64,000 nucleotides of DNA from a virus (Duplodnaviria; Caudoviricetes), in IMG/VR virus record IMGVR_UViG_3300026505_000002, positions 4,055-68,054 of that record; one strand, given 5' to 3'. The notes beneath the pieces were generated by a model. It was given only the letters and a program-made list of their open reading frames with translations, did not search any database and was not told the DNA's origin. The translations under genes and the position numbers were made by a program. Of the stretch, positions 67-63,305 are shown in pieces (position 1 is the stretch's first letter; each line of letters begins with the position of its first letter).

Positions 67-99
67 TATTATCCATTAGTATTCGTATTTAGTTTGTAA
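67..99 (-). promoter_or_regulatory. class I (early) phage promoter motif, copy 1
   Basis: TTACAAACTAAATACGA-N8-GGATAATA. Confidence 0.75.
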
Positions 100-260
100 T
101 CTTTTATTAATTGTCTTACTTCTGCACCTAGCTCTTGGTTGTTAGGGTATTCTTTAGCTAGTTCTTTAACTACTAGTGCAAAAGTTGCTAGTAAAGACTT
201 TTCATCTTCTACTTTTTGTAGTTCTTTATCTATAAAATCCCACTCTCTATCTCTATTCAT
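69..260 (-). CDS. small early hypothetical protein (likely start MNRDREW at 260; track start 269)
   Basis: ORF track; its 3' end reads through a class I promoter motif (YKLNTNTNG*). Confidence 0.7.
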   Translation of the reverse strand: MNRDREWDFIDKELQKVEDEKSLLATFALVVKELAKEYPNNQELGAEVRQLIKDYKLNTNTNG

Positions 261-423
261 TATCTGCATTTAATTCTATTATTAATTCACCTTCGTATAT
301 TTTTCTAGCTAGATTTAGTGAGTATGTCCACTTCTGCCACTCTGTTCCACATTTCTGTGTCCAACCGTAGATACCATCCTGTATATCATTAGCGATTGCT
401 TCAATTGCTTTTTGTTCTGTCAT
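253..423 (-). CDS. 56-aa early hypothetical protein MTEQKAIEAIANDIQDGIYGW... (below track cutoff)
   Basis: hand translation: ATG at 423, no internal stop, TAG at 253-255; fills the gap between neighbours. Confidence 0.7.
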   Translation of the reverse strand: MTEQKAIEAIANDIQDGIYGWTQKCGTEWQKWTYSLNLARKIYEGELIIELNADNE

Positions 424-427
424 ATTA

Positions 428-649
428 TTATTTTAAATCTTCATTAGTCATTGGTTGAAATAGTTCACTTTTCATATACTTTACTATCTTTACAGTCATT
501 TCATTGAATAAATTCATGTAAGCATCATTAGTTTCTGGAAAGTTTTCATGTTCTTGTAGTTCATATTCTAGCTCGTTAGCTAGTTTTTCGTATAGTGAGT
601 CAACTACTCTCCAAGTAATCTCGTCTTTTTCTTCGTTAGTTAGTTTCAT
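428..649 (-). CDS. small acidic early hypothetical protein
   Basis: ORF track; tight packing with neighbours. Confidence 0.7.
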   Translation of the reverse strand: MKLTNEEKDEITWRVVDSLYEKLANELEYELQEHENFPETNDAYMNLFNEMTVKIVKYMKSELFQPMTNEDLK

Positions 650-650
650 A

Positions 651-815
651 TTATTTAAATATTGGTAATATTACTTGCATGAATACATCTTTTAATACTA
701 TAGCCATTGTAGGTATCCATATAGCTAAGAATATAGTAGTCATAATAGTAGCATATATTTTTAACATTTTTTCTTCGACCGCTTTGATCGCTATTAATTT
801 AATTGCTTTAATCAT
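651..815 (-). CDS. 54-aa predicted membrane peptide MIKAIKLIAIKAVEEKMLKIYATIMTTIFLAIWIPTMAIV...
   Basis: hand translation; hydrophobic stretch; start overlaps the upstream stop. Confidence 0.6.
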   Translation of the reverse strand: MIKAIKLIAIKAVEEKMLKIYATIMTTIFLAIWIPTMAIVLKDVFMQVILPIFK

Positions 816-1056
816 TGTTGTTTAATTTAGTTAGTAATTCGTCTATTTCATCATAGTTGAAAGTAGAATAGACTTTATCTACTTCCGACTGTACATAGTT
901 GTACGTAAATTCTTTCATTGAAACACCGAACAGTGAGACAACTAGATCGCGAGGTGAATAGCCATAAGGAGATTTATGTTTGTTGTAGATCATGAGTTTG
1001 ATACTACCATCACCGTAATTGATTGCTGTTAAGTTGTCTGTGTTTATATATTTCAT
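808..1056 (-). CDS. early hypothetical protein (likely start MKYINT at 1056)
   Basis: ORF track start 1071 lies inside the promoter motif, so the downstream ATG is preferred. Confidence 0.65.
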   Translation of the reverse strand: MKYINTDNLTAINYGDGSIKLMIYNKHKSPYGYSPRDLVVSLFGVSMKEFTYNYVQSEVDKVYSTFNYDEIDELLTKLNNND

Positions 1057-1061
1057 ATTGT

Positions 1062-1094
1062 TATTATCCATCTCTCGTCGTATTTAGTTTGTAA
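1062..1094 (-). promoter_or_regulatory. class I promoter motif, copy 2
   Basis: TTACAAACTAAATACGA-N8-GGATAATA. Confidence 0.75.
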
Positions 1095-1248
1095 TTAGTT
1101 GTACTTTATATATTACTTCTTCCATTACTATTCCTAATTCTTCCATGAAATCTCTCATCTCATCGCAAATATAGTTTTTATCGTTAGTTAAATATAGTGG
1201 TTCTTCAATGTCACCATAGTATATTTCAAATTCATAGTTATCTATCAT
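1084..1248 (-). CDS. 54-aa acidic early protein MIDNYEFEIYYGDIEEP...
   Basis: hand translation; stop codon lies within a class I promoter motif (ATTACAAACTAA). Confidence 0.65.
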   Translation of the reverse strand: MIDNYEFEIYYGDIEEPLYLTNDKNYICDEMRDFMEELGIVMEEVIYKVQLITN

Positions 1249-1261
1249 ATTTATTTGTTTA

Positions 1262-1477
1262 TTAGTTATTATTTTTATAGTTTAAAATTCCTAGTTCTTC
1301 ACATAGCTTATCAGTTTCACTTTGATAACCTTCTTGTTTCCAAAAAGGAGCTAACCACTTAGGATTATTCATCATCTCATCGTGACACCATTGTTTCTCG
1401 TTATCACCGAGTTGATAGTAGTGCATGTCAAATTCTGACATTGCTACTTTGTCGATTGTAGTATTTAGATTGTTCAT
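1262..1477 (-). CDS. early hypothetical protein
   Basis: ORF track; ATGA-type overlap with the upstream gene. Confidence 0.7.
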   Translation of the reverse strand: MNNLNTTIDKVAMSEFDMHYYQLGDNEKQWCHDEMMNNPKWLAPFWKQEGYQSETDKLCEELGILNYKNNN

Positions 1478-1674
1478 AATACTTGATCTAGTAGTTCATA
1501 AACATCATCTTGTTGAGATTTACTTAATGTCATGAAGACACCGTTAGCTTCTCCGGGATAATTGAGAACGTGGTTTATACATTGCTGAGTGAGTTCAGCT
1601 TGATTTACTGTTTTAGCCATTTCGTCAAAAGCTTTTGACCAAGACCAGTTTGAAGGGTTATTTGAATTATACAT
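1474..1674 (-). CDS. early hypothetical protein
   Basis: ORF track; directly downstream of the class I promoter at 1701-1733. Confidence 0.7.
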   Translation of the reverse strand: MYNSNNPSNWSWSKAFDEMAKTVNQAELTQQCINHVLNYPGEANGVFMTLSKSQQDDVYELLDQVL

Positions 1675-1700
1675 AGTTATTTATTTTAATTAGTTTATAT

Positions 1701-1733
1701 TATTATCCAACGACTATCGTTGTTTGTTTGTAA
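1701..1733 (-). promoter_or_regulatory. class I promoter motif, copy 3 (variant)
   Basis: TTACAAACAAACAACGA-N8-GGATAATA. Confidence 0.7.
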
Positions 1734-1774
1734 CCGAGTGAGAAATCGAATCTCACTTCCAACCATTTCGGCTA
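1730..1774 (-). ncRNA. tRNA-like mini-element (acceptor stem + T-arm, no anticodon arm)
   Basis: minus strand TAGCCGA-AATGGTTGGAA-GTGAGA-TTCGATT-TCTCAC-TCGGTTA-C: 7-bp acceptor-like stem, TTCGATT T-loop, D-loop-like AATGG; no CCA. Confidence 0.6.
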
Positions 1775-1843
1775 TGTGCTTAGTCATATGTTCGTTATAT
1801 TTATACTCTCTAAAGTATGACTATCAACTAAGAGTTTAGTTTG

Positions 1844-2080
1844 TTAAGATATTTCACTTAATTCTCTACAGAATTTTGGAACAGTATTACTATTTGTATA
1901 AGATTTGTACTGTTGAAAACAAGGCATTGACTCGAATTTTTCTTGAAATGATGAGTATATTTCATCGTGATCATAAGTAAAAGTTATATCTTTTTTGTTA
2001 GTGAAAGTGATTACTGTTGAAGTTCCGAGTAATGATTTTCTGATTACAAATCTTTTTGTTGTTAAGTTATTAGTTTTCAT
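1844..2080 (-). CDS. early hypothetical protein
   Basis: ORF track; downstream of the class I promoter at 2112-2144. Confidence 0.75.
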   Translation of the reverse strand: MKTNNLTTKRFVIRKSLLGTSTVITFTNKKDITFTYDHDEIYSSFQEKFESMPCFQQYKSYTNSNTVPKFCRELSEIS

Positions 2081-2111
2081 AGTTATTATATTTATTTTGT
2101 TTAGTTTATAT

Positions 2112-2144
2112 TATTATCCAGTTAATGTCGTATTTAGTTTGTAA
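2112..2144 (-). promoter_or_regulatory. class I promoter motif, copy 4
   Basis: TTACAAACTAAATACGA-N8-GGATAATA. Confidence 0.75.
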
Positions 2145-2369
2145 TTAATATTTGTTATTTATAAAGTTTATTAGTTGATTATTTAATTTATTTGTTAAGT
2201 AGTTTTGGTCGTCAATTAGATAATTTATAATATTAAAGTTTATATATTGTTTAGTTATATTTAAAGTTTGGTTTAAGTTTTTAATAAAAATAGTATAGTT
2301 AATATTATTATAATTTTTGTTATTTGATGTAAAAGTTTTTAATGTTATATTAGTTATTTTAAATTGCAT
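2145..2369 (-). CDS. extremely AT-rich N/I/K-rich early hypothetical protein
   Basis: ORF track; downstream of the class I promoter at 2396-2428. Confidence 0.55.
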   Translation of the reverse strand: MQFKITNITLKTFTSNNKNYNNINYTIFIKNLNQTLNITKQYINFNIINYLIDDQNYLTNKLNNQLINFINNKY

Positions 2370-2395
2370 AGTATATATTTTAGTTTATTTATATA

Positions 2396-2428
2396 TATTA
2401 TCCGAGTATAGTCGTATTTAGTTTGTGA
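2396..2428 (-). promoter_or_regulatory. class I promoter motif, copy 5
   Basis: TCACAAACTAAATACGA-N8-GGATAATA. Confidence 0.75.
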
Positions 2429-2496
2429 AGGTGTAACTTAGTTTATTAGTTAAAATTAGTTGAGAAGTGTTACACATGTCATCTCAATTATTTACA

Positions 2497-2625
2497 TTAA
2501 ATACCATTAAATGATATGTAATTTATTACTCCATATTCTACTATCATATATATTACTGTAGAAATAAATGATACGAGTGATATTTTTAATATTGTTAGTT
2601 CAATGTTTTTAGTTAAAGTTTTCAT
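2497..2625 (-). CDS. 42-aa predicted membrane peptide MKTLTKNIELTILKISLVSFISTVIYMIVEYGVINYISFNGI
   Basis: hand translation; first ORF downstream of the class I promoter at 2659-2691. Confidence 0.5.
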   Translation of the reverse strand: MKTLTKNIELTILKISLVSFISTVIYMIVEYGVINYISFNGI

Positions 2626-2658
2626 AGTTATATTATTATTAATTTTTATTTACATTTA

Positions 2659-2691
2659 TATTATCCAATGTAAGTCGTAATTAGTATGTAC
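2659..2691 (-). promoter_or_regulatory. class I promoter motif, copy 6 (variant, most upstream of the early arm)
   Basis: GTACATACTAATTACGA-N8-GGATAATA. Confidence 0.65.
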
Positions 2692-2904: not shown

Positions 2905-2910
2905 TATAGG

Positions 2911-37824: not shown

Positions 37825-39462
37825 ATGAGTTATAGAAACCCAAAAAGAATAGTAGATAAAAGATTTGATGTAATGCTCAAAGGAGCTAGTCAAATAACTA
37901 ACACCATGATGCAGGGTGTTCAGCAAATGACTAATAATGTTATCAAACAAAAAGAACAAGTTAGAAAGCAACAAGAATTAGTAGATAATGAAATGCAGAG
38001 CATGTATAGCATGGCTAACAAGTTCGGCACTTCAGGAGATCCTTTGTTAGATAATAATTTAGTTAGTTTTTGGAATGGTAAAGTTGATGAATACTTTGAT
38101 GTAAAAAATAGAATGCAATCTGGTGAAATATCTAGACAAGAAGGCAACATGGCTTTATCTAAAATAAAAGGATTAGTTCCTAAGTTTCAAACTATGTTTG
38201 GTTATATAGCTCAAGAAACAGCAAGCTATGGTGAAAATTTAAAAAATAATAATGTATCTTCTACTGGGTCTATGCAGAACAAAGATATGTTAGGTACTTT
38301 TATGCAAGGTGGAGATATTCAAATAGCAGAAAGAGGTGGTAATATATATTTCTTCAAGCCAAATGATGCTGTAAAAGGAGAAGCTGAGTTTTCACTTAGC
38401 GAAGATATGAAGACTGGTAATGCTTCTATGTTAAATGGAGATGAGCTAATAGCTATGGCTAATCAAGGAAAAAGTCTTTTTAATCAAAAAGCAGATATAT
38501 CACAGTTGACAACTACATTAGCTGAAAAAATTAGTAATCCTGATGGACCTAGTCCTTATTTTGAAACTATAAAATTAAGAGCTGGTAGTCAAGATCCTTT
38601 TAATCCAGATAGAACTATAGAAAACATACCGGAAGGTATGGAATATGAATATCAAACAATGATACCTGAGCAAAGAGAACAGCTATTACTTGATATGGAA
38701 AATAGTCCTATGACACAAACTATAATGTCAGATGATAAAAGAATGTTATCTGTTTTTCAAGATGATATTCCTGACAATGCAGAAGCTAGCAATGGTAATG
38801 GCATGTCTATACAAGAAATTTCTGCTAGGTTAATTGAAGACTCTGGCTTAACTGAACAAGAGTGGTTGTCATCAATGGGTTTAACTAGTATGAACGAACT
38901 TGAAAACTCTTCATGGCATGAGGCACCTGCTAACTTATCGCTTGAGCAAAAAACAGCTTTATCAAATACTCAAGATCAAATAGCTAAGAAGTTTATAGCA
39001 CTTAAAGCGTTCAACGACAACATAGATTCTGATGGTATTGGTAAACTATTAACTAAAAACAAAATAATTACTGAGCCTACAGACTCTGAAAGTGCAGGAT
39101 CTGAAGTAGTAGACTTTGATAAAGGTTTTTCTGCTGCTACTATATATAGCCCTAATGATATAAAGACTTACAAAGCTTTAATGAAAGATGAAGAGTTCTT
39201 AGACAAAGAAATAAAAGATATAACAAATAGAGTTGATAGCGGAGAGGAAGTTGATTTTGATGCTGAAAGAAAAAGGCTAGCGCAGTTACAGGGATATGGG
39301 TCAATAGGCGATGATGATAATTATGGCTTCGTATCAACAGCAGGTCAACTTTTAACAGCTATTAGAGAGATTAAAAAGATGGATCAAGAATATCTAGATT
39401 TTAAATCTAAGTATAGTCAATATCAAAACAAATCAAATAATAATAAACCAACTCTATATTAA
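37825..39462 (+). CDS. internal virion/ejection protein
   Basis: position between small and giant ejection-type genes; helical. Confidence 0.5.
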   Translation: MSYRNPKRIVDKRFDVMLKGASQITNTMMQGVQQMTNNVIKQKEQVRKQQELVDNEMQSMYSMANKFGTSGDPLLDNNLVSFWNGKVDEYFDVKNRMQSGEISRQEGNMALSKIKGLVPKFQTMFGYIAQETASYGENLKNNNVSSTGSMQNKDMLGTFMQGGDIQIAERGGNIYFFKPNDAVKGEAEFSLSEDMKTGNASMLNGDELIAMANQGKSLFNQKADISQLTTTLAEKISNPDGPSPYFETIKLRAGSQDPFNPDRTIENIPEGMEYEYQTMIPEQREQLLLDMENSPMTQTIMSDDKRMLSVFQDDIPDNAEASNGNGMSIQEISARLIEDSGLTEQEWLSSMGLTSMNELENSSWHEAPANLSLEQKTALSNTQDQIAKKFIALKAFNDNIDSDGIGKLLTKNKIITEPTDSESAGSEVVDFDKGFSAATIYSPNDIKTYKALMKDEEFLDKEIKDITNRVDSGEEVDFDAERKRLAQLQGYGSIGDDDNYGFVSTAGQLLTAIREIKKMDQEYLDFKSKYSQYQNKSNNNKPTLY

Positions 39463-42400
39463 TGAGTCCAAACGAACAACGATTAAGATCTTTATACAAT
39501 AAAGCTGTTCAGCATTTTAGCTTACCAGACTTTGAAAAATTTGTACAAGACATACAGAATCCTGACGTATTAGAAAAGGTTAGAGAAGGTTTATCTGAGT
39601 ATTATAATGTTCCATCTTCAGAGCAAATGATGGAAGATTTATTTAACATAGTACCTGGAAAAGAAGATCGTATTAATTCAGCCGTTGCTGACAAACTGCC
39701 AGAGCCAGATATGGATTTAGCTAAGACAATGTTTGAAGCTATAGATAACAAAGACGAGGAAAGCGGCTTCTTACCACCTGAGGAAATATCAATGGTTGCT
39801 GACCAAGTTGTACAACCTGTTTATAATATAAACGCAATACAGCAAGATTTAGAAAATCCTTTAGTAGCTGCAGAAATAAAACATGAACAAGATAAGTATG
39901 ACAAGTTAAGTCCAGTAGATCAGTTTGAGTTTAGAGAACCAGAAACAGCTGCCAAATTAAAACCTTTAGTAGAAGAGTATAGACAAACGTTATCTAATAT
40001 AAACGAGTCTGACGAAGAATATAAGAAAACTTTGCTTGCTAACTTTATAGAAGAAGATTTAAGTGAACCTACTTCAGAGGGAGAAAAATTAAATTTAGAA
40101 ACGGTAAATTTGCCAGATGCTCCAACACCAATGGAGAGACTTGATCGGCTTGTGGGTACTAATGCTGTAGACAGGTTATTTATAGATGATGAAAAGCCTG
40201 CTTGGATGTCTGATCAAGTTTATCAAGAAGTAAAACACTACAAAGAAACTGGAGAAATAAGCGATAGTGTAATAGATAAAGCATCTGATCAATTAAAAAC
40301 TCAAACACTAAACAAAGTTAAGTCAGACAAACTTAATGCGTTCTACCATGCTAATAAAGATTTAACTCAAACAGATAGAAATAAATTAACAGCTTTACTT
40401 GCTGATCAAGTTGAGGGAGGTTTAGACTTTAAGAGTGTTATGGACTTGTCTAATAATCCTAGCTTAATGGATTTACAAGCTAAAAATATACAACTTAGAT
40501 CTAGTGAGATTTCTAAAAAAATGAAGTCTATACAAGAGCAACAAGATGAGTTAGATAATAATGAACAATTTTTAGAGTTAAATAGCCAAGCAGAAGAAAT
40601 ACAAAAGCAGCTAGATGTAATGGACAAAAATGGAATTAGCAATGATTCTCCTGAGTCTATTAAGAAAGAGTATAATGGTTTGTTAGCATCTTACAATGGT
40701 GTTATTGATGAGTACAAATCTAGTGGTTTATTAGATAAAAGAGAAAAGCTAGCTGAAGATATTATAGCTTGGAATAAAGAACGTGATTCTTTATTATCAG
40801 ATTCTAATGAACTAGGAGATGTATCTTTAAGCTTGGAACTTGCCACTAAAAACTTTTCTTCTTTAGATAAAGCTATTTTAGCTATGGAACAGTCATTTCT
40901 AGGCGCTACAGCATCTACAGTTGGAACTACATTAGGAATGGTAGGTGAGGTTATAGACGAAACGATAGGTGAAAAAGACGCCAATGCTTTATCTAGTTTT
41001 TTAAATAAAGTAGAAGGTGTAGCTTTAGATTATAATGAAAGCTTACAACAAGAGATGGCGGTAGCAATGGCACCTAAACCCTCAATGAGTGATGCTTGGG
41101 ATGCTGGAGCTTTAAGCGGTTATATTAGCCAAAGCTTTGCAGAAGGTACGCCTAGTATTGCTACAGTGCTTATGACTAGATTTGGAGGTAAAATGTCAAG
41201 TCCTAGTAAAAAAGCTATTAACAAAGCTTCTGGTCCTGAAAGATTTAAGCTACAAGCTAAAGCTAACGTGGCTCAAGCTAGAGCTAGTAAAATTGCTCAA
41301 GGTATATTTTTTAATATGAGTTATGGACTAAAAGGTTCAGAAATAAATATAGCCCAACGTAACGCGCCTAAAGCTATAATGGAGTTAGAAAAAAAGCTAG
41401 ACTCTGGCTTGTTAAGTCCTTTTGAAATAGCTGAAACTAAAAATCAAATAGAAGAACTTAATAGAGTTAAAGACCTTAATGTACTTCAAAAAGCAGGATC
41501 TCAATTAATTTCTGGCAGTGTAGATATGTACAGTGAACGTTTAGGTACATTAAGCTATATGAAGAACTTAAACAGAATAGCAGCGCCTGTAGGATCTACA
41601 ATGTTTAAAAAAGCTATGTATCAAGGGTTAAACCTAGGTATAAACGTAGGTACTGAAATAGTAGAAGAAACAGCGGCTCAAATAGGTAACAATCTTTCAG
41701 ACATATACATACTAGGTGAAAACAAATCTATACTAGACGGCATAGATGCTGAGTTTGCTTTTAATGTTGGTTTAACTAGTTTAGCTATACAAGGCCCTAG
41801 TATTGGTAGTAATTTATATGCCATGCTAGGAGACAATGTTAAAACTAAAAGGGATTACGAATTTGACAAGTCTAACTTTGATAGATTAATAGAAATAGAA
41901 AACTCTTTGAATGATGGCACTAAAAGATCTAAAAAAGAAAAACAAATATTAAAAGCTGAACAAGACTTAATATTAGAACAAGCTGCTTTTAGAAATATAG
42001 AAAACGTAGAAAAGCTAAGCGCTTTGAGTGAGGCACAACAAATAGAATTATTTGATTTAATAAGCCAAAGAAAAAAATATATAAGCAATTTAAGAGAGCT
42101 TGGTGACAGAGCTGGTCAAGCAGATCCTGGAAGTAAAGCTATAAAAAAACAAAAACAACAATTTGTTAATGAGTATAAATCTGTAGATACACAAATAGAA
42201 AAGCTTTTAAACACTAGAAGAACAAAAGCTGCTGAAGATCAAAAAAATGCTACTGATCCTGCCATGGCGGCTTACCATCAAGGATTGTTTGAATTTTACA
42301 ATAATACAGTAGGTGTATCACAAGAATTAAACGGTAAGAAGTATACAGAAGTTGATAGTCAAACAACAGTTGAAGAATTAAGAGAACTTTATGGAGACAG

Positions 42401-45400
42401 AGCAGAACAGTTAATAGAAGCTAGAAATAATAATCAAAACGCTACGTTTATAGGAGAAGATATAATAATATTTAGAGATAATATTGCTAGAAACATAGGT
42501 CAAACTGCAGATAAATATGTAGCTTTACTATCCGCTGTTGCTCCTATACATGAGTTACAACATATACAAAATAGAAAAGCTGGTATAGTTAAAGATGGCG
42601 TTGTTGTTGAATCTACTCAATTAGCACTAGAGCAAGCGGAAAAACAGTTAGAAATAAATAAAGAAACAGGAAAAATATCTCAAGAAGATTATAATAATTT
42701 TTTAAATAGAAAGCAAGCTTATACTTCTAGCATAAGAGAATTGCAAACTCAACTAAGCAATGGGGAAATAACTAAAGAACAATACGATGATCTTGTTAAA
42801 AACAAAGGTGTAGATGTTGAAGAAGTACTAAACCTGTTTGGAGATATGGTTGCTGCTGGTGTTTTAAGTAAATATGATTTTAATAAAATATCAGGTTTAA
42901 AATACATGCTTAAAAGCTTAGCTAACAAGTTTAATCCTAAGACTGGCTTTTTAATTCCATTAAAAACTGGAGATGATGTTTTTAATTATATAAAAAGTTT
43001 TCAAAGATCTGTAAAAGATTTTAATTTACAAGCCGGTCCACCAGAAGATGAGACTGATGGTAAGCTTTCTAAAGGACCTAGTGAAGAAGTTCAAAGATTA
43101 TACGATGAACAAGGCGAAGCTGCAGCATTTGATATTATAGAACAGTTCAAGCCTATTACAAATAAAATAGTACAACGTAGAAGTGAAGCTCCTGGTTTTG
43201 ATAGGCAATTACTTACTGATGAAATAGAAACTGGTGAACGTGGTATATTAGATTTAATAAGAGCTTATGATCCTGAATCAGGTGTACCTTTAGCAGCTTA
43301 CATAAATAAGTTTTTACCCTCAAGAGCTATTGAAGCATCAAAAAGAGTTTTAGGTGAAGAGTTTACTGATGATATTACAGAGCAAGTTGGTTTAGCTGCT
43401 ATCGAAGAAAGTGACAGTGAAGTTTTAGAAAAACCAAAAAGAAAAATCAAACTTAAGAAAAGATTAACTGGTGATATTGTTGAAACTACAGATAAGATTA
43501 AGCAAGAAATTAAAAATCTACCTATAGAACAATTAAGTTTTAAAACTTTAAAAGACGTAGCCTTAGAAGAAGTACAAAAATTATTTGGCATTAAACCTAA
43601 ACCTGGAAACTTAACTAAGCAAGATGTTGCTAATGCTCAACAGTATATTAATAAAAATGCTCAAGCTTTAATAACAATGCTGCCTGAAGGAGCAACGCCA
43701 AGCGGTACTTCTACTGGAGTTCAAAAGGTTTTATTAGATAATTTTTATAACAAGACTGAAAGAGCTAAGATGTCTAAAACTGGTAGTAAAGCTGGTTTAG
43801 CTATATACGAAAAAAGAACAGACATAACCCCTGCTGAGTTTAAAGAAGTATTTGGTATAACACCGCCAGGCCAACCTAACTTGTCAGATAGAAATACAAG
43901 TGCTAGAATAAAATCTATAGTAGCTCAAACAGAGCGTATGCTTACAAATCAAGAAGTAAGAGAAGAGTTAGAAAAACAAGGTAGAAACATACCTCAAGCT
44001 TTAACAGAAGGCAAATCACAATTAATGTTTTCTCAAGGCCCTAAGTTAAGTAAAGCTCAAATAAAAATATTAGATAAAGCTAGAAAAAGTTTTGAATCTA
44101 ATATGGATTATGGCCCTGACATTACTAGTAAGTCGTATTGGAATGCTATTATTAAATACTATGGTTACGAGCCTATTAATTTAAACACTTTAAAAGGTAA
44201 GCAGAAGTTAGAAGCAATTATATTTGAAGGTATAGACGGTAATGAACCATTAATAAGATTTTTACCTAAAAGTTTTATAACAGACAATAGAGGCACTTGG
44301 TCTAATGGTGGTATGTATGAAACCATTAAAGATGAAAACGGAAGGCCTATACTACTTGAGGAAAGTGAAAGAAAGTTTTTAAGTGAAAATGGTTTTAGAG
44401 TAAAAGCAAACGAGCCAATAAAAAGATTTAAATTAAGAAATGGTGAAACTGTATTGAATACAGATAAAGAATTTGTTACTGATGAAATACAATTACAAAT
44501 TATGCCTGGTATGGGAGGTATGGGTAATAATCGTTTTATATTTGCTAACGGTCTACAGATAGACGAAGCTATAAGAAGAGCTGAAGAGCTAGCGCAAGAA
44601 GAAGGAGTACCTGCATTTGCACCTGAAAATACTAATATAAATTTAGCAATTAAAAGAACGGGTTATAGCAAGCTATTTAGAAATGGTTTTACAAAAGAGT
44701 TCAATGCTGATCAGCAAGGCAAAAGAAAAGGATTAAAAGATATTTTTAATGTATTTGATGAAAGAATACAAGCTGATCCTAAAACTTATATTCCTGCTGT
44801 AGCTGCAATATTATCAGCAACTAGTCAAGGCCAAGGTCATTTTATGAGGAAAGGTTCTATAGTAGAATTTTTAAACGACTTAGGTTTTAAAAATGTAGAA
44901 GAACATACCCAGCCAGCTTCTTTTCTAGCTAAGTTTTTGTTTGATAGAATGGTACAAAACAACTACGACCTGTATGTAGATAATGCTTTAAAAACATTTT
45001 TTCAAGGACCTTTGCCAGAGCTTAATGATAACATGTTGAAAGGTGAAGGATTCAACTACACGGAAGCTGTAGATAAAAAATACAGGCTAGACGTGCTTAA
45101 AGGTAAAATACCTATATGGATAAGATACTTTAACCCGTTTGTTAACAAACAAAAAATTACATTAAAAATAAATGGTAAAAACGTCACATTTACAGGTGTT
45201 GATCCTAATAGATTATTTTTGTCTAATGGTAATAGTATTTCTAAGGAGTATGATTTAGATGTAGATAATGATCTACTAACTCCATCCGTGGTTGCTAAAC
45301 AGCAAGATTTGCTTTTTAAAATATTCACAGGAGAACTAACACAACAAGCTGCTAAACAAAGACTAAATAAATTTTTGAATACTGCTCCAGGTTTGAAAGC

Positions 45401-48400
45401 TAGCAAAGGAGTTAACATTAATAATCTTAAAACTACTGGTGTATTAAGTGTTGATGATAATATGACATCTGAAACTATATTAGAAAAAGCCTCTACTATA
45501 GACGTTGCATTACAATTAGCTAATAAGCTAGATCAACCAATTAAGAAAATTAGAGTATTTGACTTTGATGATACTATTGCTGAAAGTAATAGTTTAGTTT
45601 TTTACACAAAAGAAGACGGAACTATAGGAGAGTTAACAGCTGAACAATTCGCAAGTGATGGTGCTCAGCTAGTTGAGCAAGGCGCTGTTATGGACTTTTC
45701 AGACTTTGACATAGTTAGAGATGGTAGACGTGGTCCATTGTTTGATATAGCTAAGAAAATAAAAGATGCTAGAGGTAATGAAGATTTATTCATCTTAACA
45801 GCTAGATCGCCTTTATCTCAAGATGCTATATATGAATTTTTAAAATCTGAAGGTTTAGAATTTAAAAAAGAAAATATAATTGGTTTAGGTAATTCAACTG
45901 GCGAGGCGAAAGCAGAATGGCTTGTTGGTAAGGCTGCTGAAGGTTATAATGACTTTTATTTTGCAGATGATGCAGCACAGAATGTTGATGCTGTTAAAAA
46001 AGCTATGAATTTACTAGATGTCAAATCTAAAGTGCAGCTAGTCAAGCAGAATTCGCTTAAGTTTTCTAGAGGTATAAATAATCTACAATGGGAAACAGAT
46101 GCTGCCGACAACATGAAAACAACTTTCAACATAGACAATAAAGAATATAATTTTAATTTATACTCTAGAGATGATTATGGATCTTACGATGTAGAGTTTG
46201 ATCTTGATGGCAAACAGAATCTTACTAACACAGGAGATGCTGTTAAAGTAATAAGAACTGTTTATAACGGCTTATTAGACGCAGTTAATCAAAACACTAA
46301 AATAAAAAAACTTGAGTTTTCTTCTCTTAAATCTGAGCAAAGTAGAGTTAAACTATATACCACATTGATGGATAAGGTTGCTAAAAAACTAGGCTGGAAA
46401 ACAGATATATGGGAAAGCAATGACTTTATAACACCAGAACAAAGTAGCTATGACTTTGAAATAACTAAACCTAAAAAGAAAAGATCTTCAGCTGTTAGTA
46501 AAGTTTTAAAAGTTGTTGACATTAAGTCTCAAGATCAACAAGCTAAGTTAAAGTTTTCACAAGGGTTAGATCAAGAGTTTGATCAGCTAATAACTATGAA
46601 GAAAGATCCTATGTTTAAGAAGGAAATATCTAAAGAAAAAGGTAGACTTCTTGGTAAAGACAAAGATAGCTTTAAATTCTTTATTCCTTATTCAGCTGAA
46701 GATTTAGTAGGTTTAATATATCCTACTCTAGCTAAAGGTCCATTAGGTAATTTACAAATGTCTTGGTATAAAAAACATTTATTAGATCCTTTAGCAAAAG
46801 CTGATGGAAATTTAAGAGCTGATAGACTACAGTTGATAAATGATTTTAAGAAACTTAAAAAAGATTTAAACATACCTAAAGATTTAAATAAATCTACTAG
46901 TATTGGAGGATTTACAAAAGAGCAAGCCATAAGAGTTTACTTGTGGTATAAAAATGGTATAACTAATATACCTGGAGTAAATGCAGAAGACTTAAAAGAA
47001 ATGACTGAGATTATTGAAAATGATCCTCAATTAATAGAATTTGCAGAAGAGCTTTTAAAAATAACTAAAGGAGATGGCTGGTCAGAGCCTGCTAGCGGTT
47101 GGACTGCTGGAACATTAAGCACAGACATACAACAGCTTCTCAATACTACTAAAAGATATAAGTATTACGAAGATTTTAATCAAAGAATAGATAAGATATA
47201 TAGTGAAGCTAATTTAAATAAGCTAGAAGCTATGTATGGAAGAAAATATAGAGATGCGCTAGAGAATATGATTAAGCGTATTAAGACTGGTAAGAACAGA
47301 TCATCAGAAGGAACTAGACTTAGCAATAGGATATTAGACTATATTAATGGATCTAATGCTGCTATAATGTTCTTAAACACTAGATCTGCAGTGCTTCAAA
47401 CTATATCTGCCATAAACTATGTTAATTGGAATTTTAATAATCCTTTAAAAGCTGGTGCTGCATTTGCTAATCAACCTCAGTATTGGAAAGACTTTATGAC
47501 ATTGATGAATTCTGACTATTTAAAAGACAGAAGACAAGGTTTAAGAATAAATGTAACTGAATCTGAAATAGCTGACGCTGCAAAGACTGCAAAAAATAAA
47601 GCTAAAGGAGCAATAGCTTACATAATGGAAAAAGGTTATGCACCTACTCAGTTTGCTGATAGTTTCGCTATAGCTGCTGGTGGTGCTACTTATTATCGTA
47701 ATAGAATAAACGATCTAATGGAAAACAGTGGGCTTGATGAAAAGCAAGCTACTGAACAAGCGTTAAGAGAGTGGAAAGAAATATCAGAAGAATCACAACA
47801 GTCAAGTAGGCCTGATAAAATATCCCAACAACAGTCAAGCGACTATGGTCGTTTAATATTAATGTTTGCTAACACACCAATGCAGTATGCTAGAATACAA
47901 AAAAGATCTATACAAGATTTAATAGCTGGTAGAGGAGACTGGAAAACTAACGTAAGTAAAATAGCTTATTATGGCTTTGTTCAAAACTTAATATTCAACT
48001 CTCTTCAAAACGCCTTGTTTGCTATTGGAGCTGGTGATGGAGATGATGATGAAGATGACAAGAAAGTATATAGAACTATTAATGGTATGTCTGACTCAAT
48101 GCTAAGAGGTTTAGGTATAGGTGGTGCATCTGCTTCTGTTGTTAAGAATTTATTATTAGACATATATGAAAGATCTAAAAGATCTAGACCAGAGTATGTT
48201 GACGCTACTTGGAAGTTGCTTCAGTTTTCTCCACCTATAAGTAGTAAAATATCTAAGATTAGAGGAGCTGCTTATCAGTTTGATAGTAAAAAGCGTAGAC
48301 AAGAAATGATTGATAAAGGTTTTGCTATTGATAATCCAGCTTATTTAGCAGGTGCTAAAGTAGTTTCAGCAACAACAAACATACCTCTTGATAGAGCTTT

Positions 48401-48587
48401 ATTAAAGTATGATAATTTTACTGGAGCTTTTGAAGAAGAAAAAGAGTGGTGGGAAAGTGTAGCGATGATATTAGGATGGCCAGAGTGGCAATTAAAATCT
48501 GAAAAGAAACAAAGCTCTAGAAGCAGAAGTAGTAGAACTAAGTCTTCTAGATCTAGTAGTAATAGAAATAAAAGTAAAAGAAGATGA
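39462..48587 (+). CDS. giant multidomain virion/ejection (polyvalent) protein with HExxH, sigma-70 region-2-like and HAD phosphatase domains
   Basis: IHELQH (aa ~1030); GILDLIRAYDPESGVPLAAYINKFL (aa ~1250-1285); VFDFDDT / ILTARS / FYFADD (aa ~2030-2170). Confidence 0.7.
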   Translation: MSPNEQRLRSLYNKAVQHFSLPDFEKFVQDIQNPDVLEKVREGLSEYYNVPSSEQMMEDLFNIVPGKEDRINSAVADKLPEPDMDLAKTMFEAIDNKDEESGFLPPEEISMVADQVVQPVYNINAIQQDLENPLVAAEIKHEQDKYDKLSPVDQFEFREPETAAKLKPLVEEYRQTLSNINESDEEYKKTLLANFIEEDLSEPTSEGEKLNLETVNLPDAPTPMERLDRLVGTNAVDRLFIDDEKPAWMSDQVYQEVKHYKETGEISDSVIDKASDQLKTQTLNKVKSDKLNAFYHANKDLTQTDRNKLTALLADQVEGGLDFKSVMDLSNNPSLMDLQAKNIQLRSSEISKKMKSIQEQQDELDNNEQFLELNSQAEEIQKQLDVMDKNGISNDSPESIKKEYNGLLASYNGVIDEYKSSGLLDKREKLAEDIIAWNKERDSLLSDSNELGDVSLSLELATKNFSSLDKAILAMEQSFLGATASTVGTTLGMVGEVIDETIGEKDANALSSFLNKVEGVALDYNESLQQEMAVAMAPKPSMSDAWDAGALSGYISQSFAEGTPSIATVLMTRFGGKMSSPSKKAINKASGPERFKLQAKANVAQARASKIAQGIFFNMSYGLKGSEINIAQRNAPKAIMELEKKLDSGLLSPFEIAETKNQIEELNRVKDLNVLQKAGSQLISGSVDMYSERLGTLSYMKNLNRIAAPVGSTMFKKAMYQGLNLGINVGTEIVEETAAQIGNNLSDIYILGENKSILDGIDAEFAFNVGLTSLAIQGPSIGSNLYAMLGDNVKTKRDYEFDKSNFDRLIEIENSLNDGTKRSKKEKQILKAEQDLILEQAAFRNIENVEKLSALSEAQQIELFDLISQRKKYISNLRELGDRAGQADPGSKAIKKQKQQFVNEYKSVDTQIEKLLNTRRTKAAEDQKNATDPAMAAYHQGLFEFYNNTVGVSQELNGKKYTEVDSQTTVEELRELYGDRAEQLIEARNNNQNATFIGEDIIIFRDNIARNIGQTADKYVALLSAVAPIHELQHIQNRKAGIVKDGVVVESTQLALEQAEKQLEINKETGKISQEDYNNFLNRKQAYTSSIRELQTQLSNGEITKEQYDDLVKNKGVDVEEVLNLFGDMVAAGVLSKYDFNKISGLKYMLKSLANKFNPKTGFLIPLKTGDDVFNYIKSFQRSVKDFNLQAGPPEDETDGKLSKGPSEEVQRLYDEQGEAAAFDIIEQFKPITNKIVQRRSEAPGFDRQLLTDEIETGERGILDLIRAYDPESGVPLAAYINKFLPSRAIEASKRVLGEEFTDDITEQVGLAAIEESDSEVLEKPKRKIKLKKRLTGDIVETTDKIKQEIKNLPIEQLSFKTLKDVALEEVQKLFGIKPKPGNLTKQDVANAQQYINKNAQALITMLPEGATPSGTSTGVQKVLLDNFYNKTERAKMSKTGSKAGLAIYEKRTDITPAEFKEVFGITPPGQPNLSDRNTSARIKSIVAQTERMLTNQEVREELEKQGRNIPQALTEGKSQLMFSQGPKLSKAQIKILDKARKSFESNMDYGPDITSKSYWNAIIKYYGYEPINLNTLKGKQKLEAIIFEGIDGNEPLIRFLPKSFITDNRGTWSNGGMYETIKDENGRPILLEESERKFLSENGFRVKANEPIKRFKLRNGETVLNTDKEFVTDEIQLQIMPGMGGMGNNRFIFANGLQIDEAIRRAEELAQEEGVPAFAPENTNINLAIKRTGYSKLFRNGFTKEFNADQQGKRKGLKDIFNVFDERIQADPKTYIPAVAAILSATSQGQGHFMRKGSIVEFLNDLGFKNVEEHTQPASFLAKFLFDRMVQNNYDLYVDNALKTFFQGPLPELNDNMLKGEGFNYTEAVDKKYRLDVLKGKIPIWIRYFNPFVNKQKITLKINGKNVTFTGVDPNRLFLSNGNSISKEYDLDVDNDLLTPSVVAKQQDLLFKIFTGELTQQAAKQRLNKFLNTAPGLKASKGVNINNLKTTGVLSVDDNMTSETILEKASTIDVALQLANKLDQPIKKIRVFDFDDTIAESNSLVFYTKEDGTIGELTAEQFASDGAQLVEQGAVMDFSDFDIVRDGRRGPLFDIAKKIKDARGNEDLFILTARSPLSQDAIYEFLKSEGLEFKKENIIGLGNSTGEAKAEWLVGKAAEGYNDFYFADDAAQNVDAVKKAMNLLDVKSKVQLVKQNSLKFSRGINNLQWETDAADNMKTTFNIDNKEYNFNLYSRDDYGSYDVEFDLDGKQNLTNTGDAVKVIRTVYNGLLDAVNQNTKIKKLEFSSLKSEQSRVKLYTTLMDKVAKKLGWKTDIWESNDFITPEQSSYDFEITKPKKKRSSAVSKVLKVVDIKSQDQQAKLKFSQGLDQEFDQLITMKKDPMFKKEISKEKGRLLGKDKDSFKFFIPYSAEDLVGLIYPTLAKGPLGNLQMSWYKKHLLDPLAKADGNLRADRLQLINDFKKLKKDLNIPKDLNKSTSIGGFTKEQAIRVYLWYKNGITNIPGVNAEDLKEMTEIIENDPQLIEFAEELLKITKGDGWSEPASGWTAGTLSTDIQQLLNTTKRYKYYEDFNQRIDKIYSEANLNKLEAMYGRKYRDALENMIKRIKTGKNRSSEGTRLSNRILDYINGSNAAIMFLNTRSAVLQTISAINYVNWNFNNPLKAGAAFANQPQYWKDFMTLMNSDYLKDRRQGLRINVTESEIADAAKTAKNKAKGAIAYIMEKGYAPTQFADSFAIAAGGATYYRNRINDLMENSGLDEKQATEQALREWKEISEESQQSSRPDKISQQQSSDYGRLILMFANTPMQYARIQKRSIQDLIAGRGDWKTNVSKIAYYGFVQNLIFNSLQNALFAIGAGDGDDDEDDKKVYRTINGMSDSMLRGLGIGGASASVVKNLLLDIYERSKRSRPEYVDATWKLLQFSPPISSKISKIRGAAYQFDSKKRRQEMIDKGFAIDNPAYLAGAKVVSATTNIPLDRALLKYDNFTGAFEEEKEWWESVAMILGWPEWQLKSEKKQSSRSRSSRTKSSRSSSNRNKSKRR

Positions 48588-49904: not shown

Positions 49905-50056
49905 AATCTTATAGTGACTCCGACTGATAGTGTGACAGCACCAACCGCTATTGCTAATTCATTTGGCCCAAACTTTGGTTTTTGCTTATGCCATATCATA
50001 TTAGTGCTAGCCATTGTAATCATGCCTATTCCTCCTATTATCATTAACTTTTTCAT
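49901..50056 (-). CDS. 51-aa membrane peptide MKKLMIIGGIGMITMASTNMIW...
   Basis: hand translation; ATGA overlap with the RNR stop. Confidence 0.6.
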   Translation of the reverse strand: MKKLMIIGGIGMITMASTNMIWHKQKPKFGPNELAIAVGAVTLSVGVTIRF

Positions 50057-51915
50057 ACTATCTCACATGCGCCTCCTGCACAAGCTAATTCACCAGCTAG
50101 ATCAGTTTCATCTTCAACTTCTACTATATCAGTAAGACTAACATCAGTTAAACTTTTCATCATAGTTTCGTATTTAGATTTATCTATATCTTCAAATGGT
50201 GCTTGAGTGTATGTACCACCATCATAAGGTAATACAGATAGCCCGTTGTAATAATCCCTATTTTCCCACATCCAGTCACCTGCTTTATCCCACTCATTTT
50301 CTTTTAAACTAACAGTAGCTGAAACATTGTGAGTATTACTACCACGCTTGTGACCTGGTTTAACCCATTCAGTTGCTACTTTCTTTATACGTTCAAGCAA
50401 ATCAAATGGTGACTCAGTTCTAAGTATAGCATTAGCCGGAGCTTTTTGTGGTATACTAATTACAGCAGTATCATGAGGTCTAAAGTATTCATCTTCAATT
50501 AAATCAGGATGGTTTTCAACTAAGTATTTATACATACTTTCGTTTTTACCAACTCTAACTCTACGGACATAATAATCATTATGCCATGCGTGAATACCAG
50601 ATGAAGTTCCTAGCGCCAGAGATGTTGTCCCAGCAGGCTTCACGGTTGTACATCTAGCTGCGGGTTTAATACCAATTAACTTAGCTAGTTTTTTGTTTTG
50701 GTTTACTACTATATCTGCAGCTTCCTTCATATCCAACTGCAGCACAGCGGCAGAGCCTATTCCTGTCATTGATACACCTATAAGGGCGTCCTTCTCTGTC
50801 GTATCTTTCCATACATCTCTTAAATAATGAAAGTCAGTGTAGCCTGCCTGTAGTGTACCTATAAAAGAAGCTACTTGACATCTCTTGTTAAAATCATTTT
50901 GATCTACTATATCACTAGCGTTTACTTCACATAGGTTGCAAAACTGAAAAGGTCTTAATGCTATTTCACAACAAGGGTTAGTTCCCCAGTCTTTATCATT
51001 ATTAAAATAAATACCTGGTTCACCTGCACCTGAAAGCTCAACACGCTTCCATAGATCCATAAAAAATTGTTTACTTATTTTATGTCTCATTAATACAGCT
51101 GAGTTGTTAGCGCGACCTCGTTGAGGTGCCTCTTCCCACCAGTGACCTGACTTACAACCTATCATAGCTTCGTCGTCTGCAGAAAACAAACTAATTAAAG
51201 CTGCTCTACGTATACCACCCGCTAATACAGCATCAGCTATATGACAAACAATATCGTGAGCTTGTATTGTAGTTAATTTATCTCCGTCTTCTACATCTTG
51301 TAGTATTCCTTGTACTTTTATAACACACTCTTTTAAAGGTTGTGGACCTGGTGCTTTGCCACCAGACGTAACTAATTGTGCGCCCTTTGGTCTTATATCA
51401 GAATAATCAAATATAATCTTAGATGATCTCTTAGAGCCCATATAAGATGTGATTAATATCTTTATTGCGTCAGCCCAGCCTTCAATACTGTCACCAATTA
51501 AATGTCTTCTAGTTCTTTTACTATAAGGTTGGTTAACTGCAGGTAACTTATCAACGTGATGTCGTTGAACAGAGTAACCTACACCAGTACCACCTAGTAA
51601 TAAAAACATTATTTCATGGAAACACTCAGTGCTATCAATAGGTAGATAAGCACAATTATAAACTCTATTAGGCGAGATTTCAATTGGTTTACCTCCGAAC
51701 TGTAGCGAACGCATACTTGGTAAAACTTTCTTTTCATATACTAATTTATAAGCTTCTTCAATAGACTCAGCAAGATCAGGATATTTCTTAATGTGCATGT
51801 TCTTGTTTCTAGTAACTAGTTCTTCCCATGTTTCTCTTCTATTTAATTCTGGTATGTACTTAGCATACTTCATATAAACAGTTATATCACTTAGTATCTT
51901 GTTGCTTATCTCCAT
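50053..51915 (-). CDS. nrdJ: class II (B12-dependent, monomeric RTPR-type) ribonucleotide reductase
   Basis: YNCAYLP, GTNPCCEI, FCNLCE, TTVKPAGTTSL, C-terminal CAGGAC. Confidence 0.9.
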   Translation of the reverse strand: MEISNKILSDITVYMKYAKYIPELNRRETWEELVTRNKNMHIKKYPDLAESIEEAYKLVYEKKVLPSMRSLQFGGKPIEISPNRVYNCAYLPIDSTECFHEIMFLLLGGTGVGYSVQRHHVDKLPAVNQPYSKRTRRHLIGDSIEGWADAIKILITSYMGSKRSSKIIFDYSDIRPKGAQLVTSGGKAPGPQPLKECVIKVQGILQDVEDGDKLTTIQAHDIVCHIADAVLAGGIRRAALISLFSADDEAMIGCKSGHWWEEAPQRGRANNSAVLMRHKISKQFFMDLWKRVELSGAGEPGIYFNNDKDWGTNPCCEIALRPFQFCNLCEVNASDIVDQNDFNKRCQVASFIGTLQAGYTDFHYLRDVWKDTTEKDALIGVSMTGIGSAAVLQLDMKEAADIVVNQNKKLAKLIGIKPAARCTTVKPAGTTSLALGTSSGIHAWHNDYYVRRVRVGKNESMYKYLVENHPDLIEDEYFRPHDTAVISIPQKAPANAILRTESPFDLLERIKKVATEWVKPGHKRGSNTHNVSATVSLKENEWDKAGDWMWENRDYYNGLSVLPYDGGTYTQAPFEDIDKSKYETMMKSLTDVSLTDIVEVEDETDLAGELACAGGACEIV

Positions 51916-52102
51916 CGCTTGTTTCTTTTACTTTGTTTTTAACTTTACCTAAAGCATCTTCATATTCTGACATATGCTTCATTGTTTCTAATGTACCAAA
52001 TGATACTGTTCTTAAGTATTCAACCTCAGTATACAAATGCTGAACTACATTTGTTAGTGATTGAACTTTATTTTTCATTTCTATTAAAGTCTGCTCTTTC
52101 AT
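51887..52102 (-). CDS. hypothetical coiled-coil protein
   Basis: ORF track. Confidence 0.6.
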   Translation of the reverse strand: MKEQTLIEMKNKVQSLTNVVQHLYTEVEYLRTVSFGTLETMKHMSEYEDALGKVKNKVKETSDGDKQQDTK

Positions 52103-52233
52103 CTTCCTTGTCCTATATATTTTTTCTTATAGTTAACACTATTTTTTGAATTAGATGTTTTACTTTTAGAGTGAACACCAGGTCTTTTTCTACGGGTTCT
52201 TTCTCGATACGGTAATAACGTTAGTTTCGCCAT
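52099..52233 (-). CDS. 44-aa highly basic peptide (RPGVHSKSK...KKYIGQGR)
   Basis: hand translation; ATGA overlap with the downstream ORF. Confidence 0.6.
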   Translation of the reverse strand: MAKLTLLPYRERTRRKRPGVHSKSKTSNSKNSVNYKKKYIGQGR

Positions 52234-54938: not shown

Positions 54939-54943
54939 ATTTA

Positions 54944-54976
54944 TATTATCCATTTGGTTTCGTATTTAAATTGTAA
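54944..54976 (-). promoter_or_regulatory. class I promoter motif, copy 7
   Basis: TTACAATTTAAATACGA-N8-GGATAATA; drives the nucleotide-metabolism cluster. Confidence 0.7.
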
Positions 54977-56909: not shown

Positions 56910-56922
56910 TTATTTAATTTAA

Positions 56923-57240: not shown

Positions 57241-57241
57241 A

Positions 57242-58530: not shown

Positions 58531-58532
58531 AC

Positions 58533-58564
58533 TATTATAATCACATATTTATTTATTAATTTAC
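58533..58564 (-). promoter_or_regulatory. class II promoter motif driving the recombination/replication genes
   Basis: GTAAA-N15-GTGATTATAATA; the GTAA overlaps the stop codon of the sigma gene. Confidence 0.6.
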
Positions 58565-59310
58565 AGGTAGTCAAGCACTTGCGAGTGATCTACCGTGTCA
58601 ATAAGCTTTTGTACAGCTTGTTTTTTTAGTTCAGAAACTCTTACATAATCAGAAGAACCTTTTATACCTAAATCTGCTGCTATTTGTTTAGCTGATAATT
58701 TTTTACCAGTCAAACCGTAACTCTTGCATAATACGTAAGATTCATCTTCTGTTAAGTATTTATTTAACAAACTAATTAAATAAGCATTTAACAACTGCTC
58801 GTTGTATGGGTCTGATTTATCTGGTATTTGATAAACCATATCTTCATTAGCCGGTGTTGCATCGATACTTAAAAATATACTATTAAAAAACATAGCAACC
58901 ATTTTTTTATCTTTACCACCATCTTTTCTTATTTGCTCCATTTTGTGTTCTGGTATACGCATTGTACCTCTATTTTTATCAATAGCTCTACGTATGCCAC
59001 CTCTTACACGTTTTGATAAAAAAGATTTTAAACTTAGTTCAATATCTTCTGAGTCTACTAATTTTTCCCAGTCTATTTTATCTATTGCTTTTATTAAATT
59101 TACATAACCTTCTTGTATTATATCTAATATAGATAAAACTCCGGATGCTTCTTGAGATGTAGCAAACTTTTTAGATATGTTTTCTACAAGCGGCATGAAC
59201 TTAACAATAAGCTCATCACGAGTATAAAAAGAATAAGACTTATCTGAAGGCATAGCTAATTTTATATCTTCTTTATGCCTTATGTAATTTTGTACATTAT
59301 ACTTTTTCAT
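58561..59310 (-). CDS. phage sigma-70 family factor
   Basis: region 2: ELIVKFMPLVENISKKF / DIIQEGYVNLIKAIDK / RVRGGIRRAIDKNRGTMRIP; region 4 HTH: LSAKQIAADLG..VRVSELKKQAVQKL. Confidence 0.85.
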   Translation of the reverse strand: MKKYNVQNYIRHKEDIKLAMPSDKSYSFYTRDELIVKFMPLVENISKKFATSQEASGVLSILDIIQEGYVNLIKAIDKIDWEKLVDSEDIELSLKSFLSKRVRGGIRRAIDKNRGTMRIPEHKMEQIRKDGGKDKKMVAMFFNSIFLSIDATPANEDMVYQIPDKSDPYNEQLLNAYLISLLNKYLTEDESYVLCKSYGLTGKKLSAKQIAADLGIKGSSDYVRVSELKKQAVQKLIDTVDHSQVLDYL

Positions 59311-61690: not shown

Positions 61691-61695
61691 ATTAA

Positions 61696-61728
61696 TATTA
61701 TCTGTTAGTGTTCGTATTTAGTTTGTAT
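61696..61728 (-). promoter_or_regulatory. class I promoter motif, copy 8
   Basis: ATACAAACTAAATACGA-N8-AGATAATA. Confidence 0.7.
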
Positions 61729-61943: not shown

Positions 61944-61944
61944 A

Positions 61945-63272: not shown

Positions 63273-63305
63273 TATTATCTTATAGTGTTCGTATTTAGTT
63301 TGTAA
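63273..63305 (-). promoter_or_regulatory. class I promoter motif, copy 9
   Basis: TTACAAACTAAATACGA-N8-AGATAATA. Confidence 0.75.

Follow-up and report, generated by a model that had tools for sequence, protein, structure and literature searches.

Three routes to early transcription are known among phages, namely, use of the host holoenzyme as it is, injection of an RNA polymerase (N4, crAss-like phages, phiKZ), and injection of a polymerase-modifying enzyme (T4 Alt). The virion RNA polymerases N4 gp50, crAss-like phi14:2 gp66 and phiKZ vRNAP are delivered with the DNA and start early transcription at phage-specific promoters, and domain 2 is the part by which every sigma factor grips the beta-prime clamp helices of the core enzyme. 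Here we describe a sigma-70 domain-2-like module embedded in a giant protein of 3041 amino acids (aa), encoded in a stretch of 64,000 nucleotides (nt; hereafter, the window) that corresponds to bases 4055-68054 of IMG/VR record IMGVR_UViG_3300026505_000002. The source record (68,054 bp) is complete according to CheckV, and the evidence suggests an uncultured marine phage of flavobacteria. Judging from the predicted models, aa ~1205-1300 of the giant protein are very probably a highly diverged but genuine sigma-70-type domain 2 in a polyvalent protein. The explanation that we place first, though tentatively, is that a sigma-2-type polymerase-docking module is carried by a probable virion polyvalent protein. 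The two features concerned are as follows.

39462..48587, plus strand: giant 3041-aa multi-domain open reading frame (ORF), a single open frame and the last large gene of the virion-structural operon
43074..43361, plus strand: sigma-70 domain-2-like module, aa ~1205-1300, identified by its AlphaFold2 (AF2) fold, structural matches, ESM Atlas neighbours and conservation

Compared with sigma-70 domain 2 as found in SigB, sigma28/FliA, SigE/SigK and AlgU, the module shares the predicted fold, the helix order and register of regions 2.1-2.4, a DxIExGxxG-type region 2.2 motif and the equivalent of Y430. It differs in lying at residue ~1200 of a 3041-aa late/structural protein, whereas the known domains lie at the start of 180-300-aa proteins, and in having no clear sigma-3 or sigma-4, most of its -10 pocket residues changed, and a sequence to which the Pfam model is blind. 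T4 gp55 is likewise a phage-encoded minimal sigma-2-like module, and in both cases an extended -10-like box is readable in principle (T4 late promoters carry TATAAATA, and the class I box described below is GGATAATA). However, gp55 (185 aa) is synthesised during infection as a separate protein and works with gp33 and the sliding clamp, whereas the present module is a single domain within a protein that is probably part of the virion. The virion RNA polymerases resemble the present protein in being giant proteins encoded at the end of the structural module, but searches of the latter revealed no polymerase motif or match; it has a specificity or docking module only, so that the host core would do the synthesis. 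T4 Alt is a virion-delivered reprogrammer of host RNA polymerase, a likeness that we propose for the giant protein as well, although Alt modifies the alpha subunit enzymatically and is not itself a sigma-like subunit. In the survey of Iyer et al. (2017; PMC5512222), polyvalent proteins are predicted to accompany the DNA into the cell, where they would counter defences and jump-start transcription, and zincin processing is stressed. Their hallmark, several unrelated effector domains in one polypeptide, was also found in the giant protein (HExxH, HAD phosphatase and, in relatives, a kinase). A sigma-type domain is neither among the domains listed in that study nor mentioned there, and it is a new addition to polyvalent virion proteins.

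An AF2 model of aa 1190-1330, built on an alignment with 34 IMG/VR relatives, had a predicted local distance difference test (pLDDT) score of ~90 or more over model residues 21-110, and a model of aa 1190-1560, obtained from a different alignment, repeated the same list of sigma matches. In a structural search of 48,161 PDB representatives, which was independent of Foldseek, ranks 1-20 were all sigma entries (Z 6.4-8.3), with a root-mean-square deviation (rmsd) of ~3 A over 76-100 residues. More specifically, the best match was 8x6g_H (SigB; Z 8.3, rmsd 2.9 A over 88 residues), and the top 20 further comprised sigma28, chain F of the T4 late complex 7d7d (which we take to be gp55), pro-SigK, SigE, ShbA, AlgU and sigma32, as well as SigA domain 2, RpoS, sigma70, SigR, BldN, SigW, SigC, CnrH and SigI. 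Cyclin/TFIIB-like helical folds appeared from rank 21 down (Z ~6). Foldseek searches against the PDB and against viral models returned mainly sigma factors with weak E-values; the Foldseek check proposed in an earlier note on this DNA thus gave lists that sigma factors dominate, but at weak significance. The ESM Atlas, an orthogonal method, put the segment among small viral clusters of Sigma-70 region 2: PF04542 was assigned to 21 of its 30 closest neighbours, and the highest score was 0.97 (a score of 0.95 is reached by shuffled proteins ~1 time in 100). As modelled, aa ~1205-1300 is a real sigma-2-type fold, and the segment is very probably a remote homologue of sigma factors, though it fails the family's sequence test. 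The earlier note, made from the letters alone, had placed a sigma-70 region-2-like domain of the 3041-aa protein at 43090-43350. The AF2 models, structural search and ESM Atlas bear out the domain, and the string quoted in that note corresponds to aa 1221-1297 (window positions 43122-43352), within ~30 nt of the position it gave.

The region 2.1-2.4 register proposed in the same note was also recovered in profile comparisons. The top match of a family profile searched against PDB sequences was a fragment of SigE regions 2.2/2.3, aligned in the register expected (E 0.36), and hhalign comparisons with 24 sigma genes of one Flavobacteriaceae genome and with 10 sigmas from phages gave the correct register in every case. 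We then mapped the segment without gaps onto residues 401-439 of E. coli sigma70, using the register of the profile-to-PDB top match and the E. coli residue numbering. Positions D403, I405, G408, G411, F419 (as Y), G424, Y430 and W434 (as F) were found to be kept and nearly invariant in the family. Among the E. coli sigma70 -10 pocket positions, an aromatic residue is still present only at the F419, Y430 and W434 equivalents, and within the sigma-like domain no stretch varies less than the helix that corresponds to regions 2.3/2.4.

Across 39 IMG/VR loci the sigma-like domain is 57-92% identical, compared with 26-72% for the domain that follows it; by sequence comparison, it is the best conserved part of the giant marine protein family. 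It was found in at least 941 clusters at 90% identity and 323 clusters at 50% identity, from marine metagenomes, and its carriers are nearly always proteins of 1.7-3.8 thousand residues. When the sigma-like module and the C-terminal domain of the giant protein were searched by tblastn against 50,697 phage records, no match was obtained among isolated phages. A scan of bacterial genomes turned up a copy on contig_5 (117,301 bp) of the Flavobacteriaceae metagenome-assembled genome (MAG) CBDICL01 (L123/L149), a separate contig of a 4.5-Mb assembly, which encodes a 2025-aa giant protein with a 45%-identical domain bearing an insertion in the 2.2-2.3 loop. A phage-type sigma is also encoded on this contig, which may be a concatemer or a co-assembled phage because it is ~2x the clade genome size. 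In two further cases, the copy is on a short contig that had been binned with an unrelated MAG. As a hint, the CBDICL01 copy, together with the isolated relatives described below, indicates Flavobacteriia hosts.

Free-standing versions of the domain were also looked at. Two candidates (P0164, P0171) were set aside as lying on short or N-containing contigs, and in a third (P0127) the split is probably an artefact because it coincides with homopolymer runs and a frame change. On a 19-kb metagenome contig (L119 2968-3324; ENA ERZ1283806 k141_683285) the giant frame is broken by an in-frame TGA and TAA that fall in both linkers flanking the sigma-like domain, leaving a 107-aa ORF that is the domain; this ORF represents either a real split, readthrough or an assembly error.

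Coverage of 261 relatives divided the giant protein into three conserved modules (aa ~1100-1550, 2000-2200 and 2330-3010) behind an N-terminal 1100 residues that are variable. Its further features are listed here.

40701..41627, plus strand: stretch weakly similar to Cellulophaga phage phi38:1 gp101, aa 414-722 (BLASTP)
42549..42563, plus strand: lone HExxH motif (HELQH, aa 1030-1034; motif scan)
43362..43475, plus strand: acidic low-confidence linker, aa ~1301-1338 (pLDDT <50 in both models; poorly conserved)
43476..44051, plus strand: conserved domain after the linker, aa ~1339-1530, of no recognised family (pLDDT ~80)
45531..46025, plus strand: HAD-type phosphatase domain, aa 2024-2188, DFDDT motif (phrog_415, E 1.5e-5; DxDxT at aa 2034)
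46452..48494, plus strand: conserved C-terminal domain (680 aa), aa 2331-3011, family not recognised (relatives' coverage)

The HAD domain resembles the phosphatase half of polynucleotide kinase, and this phosphatase was the sole match of the whole protein in Pfam, PHROGs and PDB sequence searches. The HExxH motif sits ~175 residues upstream of the sigma-like domain, and in one homologue the sequence AHEFMH lies at a comparable distance upstream; by analogy with the processing role given to zincins by Iyer et al. (2017), it is possibly a zincin-type processing peptidase. The C-terminal domain is present in ~200 of the 261 relatives, with 37-97% identity in 53 IMG/VR loci. PDB profile search, Pfam and the ESM Atlas assigned no family either to this domain or to the domain downstream of the linker. 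Giant proteins of relatives carry extra Zeta_toxin/AAA_33 kinase or lytic transglycosylase (SLT) domains.

The giant ORF is the last in a series of plus-strand genes that includes terminase, portal, virion structural and tail-fibre-like genes. For the terminase and portal, identities of 35-63% were found with the counterparts in elemo phages of Flavobacterium, in Cellulophaga phage phi38:1 and in a freshwater podovirus (MW202828). These phages also have a giant gene in the same slot (elemo gp18, 3694 aa; phi38:1 gp101, 1691 aa; MW202828, 3859 aa), and the elemo and phi38:1 proteins were labelled 'structural protein' by their depositors. In a BLASTP search of a seven-sequence database, phi38:1 gp101 showed a weak similarity to aa 414-722 of the giant protein (22% identity, E 3e-5). 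Based on the operon-end position, the structural annotation of the same-slot giants and the weak gp101 similarity, the giant protein is, by analogy, probably packed in the virion. Consistent with the earlier note, which had called the arrangement undescribed, our literature search found no published injected or packaged sigma and no description of an embedded sigma-like domain. Phage SU10 was considered as a precedent for a packaged sigma and rejected: the phage sigma was seen in the SU10 paper by one peptide, among DNA polymerase and other nonstructural proteins, which is no evidence of packaging.

The predicted fold of the module, its conservation, its genomic setting and its co-occurrence with a second sigma gene and with the class I promoters (see below) are what the analysis shows, whereas the following course, from packaging and ejection to the binding of polymerase and the use of promoters, is inferred. 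The giant gene, being the last large one of the virion operon, would be expressed late, and its product would most likely be loaded into the capsid and leave it along with the DNA, as is presumed for the same-slot giants of other podoviruses. In the cytoplasm, either whole or cleaved at the flanking disordered linkers, the protein would dock on the host core polymerase through its sigma-2-like module, and the phage would thus gain influence on transcription ahead of the expression of its own genes. The module might then team up with a weakly sigma-4-like segment and serve as a sigma specific for the class I promoters, or it might do no more than tether or divert polymerase. A complex prediction of the sigma-2-like segment with residues 1-420 of Flavobacterium johnsoniae beta-prime scored 0.59 against 0.41 for one unrelated control, which misses the required margin, and so it speaks neither for nor against binding.

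The same genome encodes a standalone sigma and carries two classes of promoter-like sites, which the earlier note had linked to the embedded domain in a two-step scheme. The standalone sigma and the class I sites of the window are as follows.

58561..59310, minus strand: standalone phage sigma-70-family factor, 249 aa (Sigma70_r2 E 2.5e-5, Sigma70_r4 E 1.3e-3)
67..2691, minus strand: six class I promoter-like sites of ~33 nt each (starts 67, 1062, 1701, 2112, 2396, 2659), read directly
54944..54976, minus strand: class I promoter-like site, read directly
61696..61728, minus strand: class I promoter-like site, upstream of the early arm with the sigma gene, read directly
63273..63305, minus strand: class I promoter-like site, read directly

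The standalone gene was rightly called a sigma, with both Sigma70_r2 (24.4 bits against a cut-off of 24) and Sigma70_r4 matched, and nothing else in the genome is matched by the Pfam r2/r4 models. Its family is very abundant (at least 8000 scored candidates match, and the best 120 of 8000 are at least 85% identical, mostly from marine metagenomes), so that the phage group must be common in the sea. The searches for a polymerase also agree with the earlier note. Pfam, PHROG and PDB sequence searches revealed no RNA polymerase family in the giant protein, where a motif scan found no NADFDGD-type motif and DxDxD only in a loop (DLDVD) and an acidic run (DGDDD), and no phage RNA polymerase was recognisable among the larger ORFs of the phage.

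All nine class I sites that had been noted in the window are present, out of 12 in the complete genome, all on the minus strand; the three copies left of the window lie at record bases 739, 2767 and 3480 (G000). Each has the layout TTACAAACTAAATACGA-N8-GGATAATA. The motif TTACAAAC..AAATA...-N-TGGATAATA is kept in relatives G002, G004 and G006, which have clusters of 5-8 class I copies with the same two boxes and proteins that are ~65-90% identical; it thus persists even where protein identity is down to ~65-70%. In five of the nine sites (67-99, 1062-1094, 54944-54976, 61696-61728 and 63273-63305) an ATG lies exactly 6 nt past GATAAT, as would fit a true -10 box, so the mRNAs from these sites are probably leaderless; the other four, with no adjacent ATG, may give non-coding or long-leader RNAs. 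The class II sites (13635, 27503, 34478 and 58533) have a perfect TATAAT in GTGATTATAATA with GTAAA ~20 nt upstream. Since the -10 boxes of the two classes are alike, one sigma could in principle read both. The promoter consensus of Bacteroidota type is TTTG-N17-21-TAnnTTTG, and it was not enriched (1 match versus 3.4 expected). This agrees with the earlier note, whose implied premise, that the host does not read class I sites unaided, is weakened by the phi14:2 study: there, transcription from the T7 A1 promoter was obtained with the RNA polymerase of Cellulophaga baltica, and phage promoters of a -35/-10-like type were attributed to the host polymerase. Given that C. baltica RNA polymerase transcribes T7 A1, the host holoenzyme might read class I sites unaided.

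These sites bear on the scheme of the earlier note in its full form, in which the sigma-2-like module, a diverged sigma-4 and the host core would fire the class I promoters, leading to the standalone sigma, which would in turn serve the TATAAT-type class II late promoters. We regard this full injected-sigma cascade as rather unlikely, although it has several points in its favour. The class I motif is long, has a fixed spacing (-38 to -22 plus TGGATAATA) and is kept in diverged relatives; one site lies upstream of the arm holding the standalone sigma gene; the ATG spacing fits true -10 boxes with leaderless mRNAs; and the residues equivalent to regions 2.3/2.4 are the most invariant in the domain. 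In addition, the first 43 columns of the downstream domain (aa ~1340-1381) aligned by hhalign with sigma region 4.1/4.2 of the 24 Flavobacteriaceae sigmas at P 0.003-0.006 (controls, P 0.07-0.45), colinear with the sigma-2 match, and Foldseek gave ~300-column alignments of the longer model to whole sigma factors (E 0.15-1). Pfam Sigma70_r4 found no match in the giant protein, and on sequence the weak sigma-4-like signal after the sigma-2-like domain is a hint, not a finding. The giant protein domain and the standalone sigma occur together in all three near-complete uncultured marine relatives having the giant protein, and both are absent from phi38:1, elemo and MW202828, in whose genomes no Pfam-detectable sigma gene was found. 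The same co-occurrence, however, means that the standalone sigma could read both promoter classes, whose -10 boxes are alike. Also counting against the cascade are the loss of canonical -10 recognition residues, the level of the sigma-4 evidence (P ~0.005 only), the ability of Flavobacteriia polymerase to use sigma-70-like promoters, and packaging, which is argued from analogy. Thus, the promoter facts make the cascade coherent but do not separate the giant-protein domain from the standalone sigma as the class I reader.

Several observations weigh against the docking module that we prefer. Pfam Sigma70_r2 (PF04542) gave no match with the whole giant protein and 19 relatives, and none with the excised segment even at E 10; when the Sigma70_r2/r4 models were run over all six frames of the genome, the standalone sigma gene alone was matched and the giant-protein segment was not. 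The hhalign comparisons gave P 0.004-0.12 and probabilities <10% (reversed or unrelated controls, P 0.07-0.57), and no sequence method reached significance. Direct BLASTP of the segment against the standalone sigma found no match. When 1.84 billion representatives were searched with the family profile (hmmsearch), 323 matched, and no bridge to sigma factors is visible because the 150 listed were all of the same giant-protein family. The structural Z of ~8 is middling for helical folds according to the search tool's own note. R423, Y425 and W433, which make up most of the canonical A(-11) pocket residues, are replaced; from the kept and replaced residues, the core-binding face looks better preserved than the canonical -10 pocket. 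Local searches with hidden Markov models gave only noise for a sigma-like domain in the giant proteins of phi38:1, elemo and MW202828, so the slot does not require the domain. Moreover, an imported factor is not logically required because the polymerase of a related-genus host reads sigma-70-type promoters.

Some of these points would fit an exapted fold, in which the helical bundle has nothing to do with polymerase and instead binds, for example, a host defence protein, the inside of the capsid, the portal or the end of the genome. That sequence homology to sigma factors is not established, that Cyclin/TFIIB-like folds follow from rank 21 at Z ~6, and that the isolated relatives do without the domain are all compatible with such a role, which we nevertheless consider unlikely: the top structural matches are all sigma domain 2 in the correct sequence register, and the language-model neighbours are Sigma70_r2 proteins. 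The retention of a region 2.2-like core-binding motif alongside a largely lost -10 pocket could instead mean that the ejected module is a sigma decoy, occupying the clamp helices without directing initiation, and either displacing the host primary sigma and shutting off host transcription or parking polymerase at the entering DNA end. Phage mimics or displacers of initiation factors exist (for example, D29 gp53-gp52, according to a preprint). On the other hand, cellular polymerase would vastly exceed the few copies that a virion delivers, and the invariant region 2.3/2.4 surface would be left unexplained, so we hold a decoy to be distinctly improbable. Finally, the giant protein might be a late intracellular polyprotein from which a late-gene sigma like T4 gp55 is released, as its expression with late genes, the sigma-2-only nature of gp55, the rank of 7d7d_F among the top matches (Z 7.5) and the contig on which in-frame stops bracket the domain as a 107-aa ORF could suggest, but a dedicated standalone sigma with matching class II late promoters is already present and same-slot giants are annotated as structural in relatives, which makes this very unlikely.

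With a docking module on a probable virion protein remaining the preferred explanation, the phage may take hold of host transcription at entry. If true, a virion-delivered sigma-type subunit would be a fourth, cheaper route to early transcription, in which the specificity module is brought and the catalytic core borrowed. This would bear on how phages of Bacteroidota, hosts with an unusual primary-sigma promoter specificity, get their first genes read. Should the module also act at class I promoters, there would be a two-sigma cascade with a virion-borne first sigma, widespread in marine flavobacterial phages. If real, the mechanism would be ecologically widespread, since the domain occurs in >900 marine clusters and the standalone sigma is very common there.

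As to the remaining gene content of the window, no DNA polymerase turned up among the scanned ORFs. The replication arm (50053-62000, minus strand) encodes a primase-helicase, ligase, exonuclease, Erf and a resolvase-like nuclease, as well as a class II ribonucleotide reductase, a thymidylate-synthase-like enzyme and MazG. A full-length GroEL/Cpn60-type chaperonin is encoded at 9504-11051 (plus strand; Pfam E 3.5e-53), and in the elemo relative an annotated GroES adjoins the terminase.

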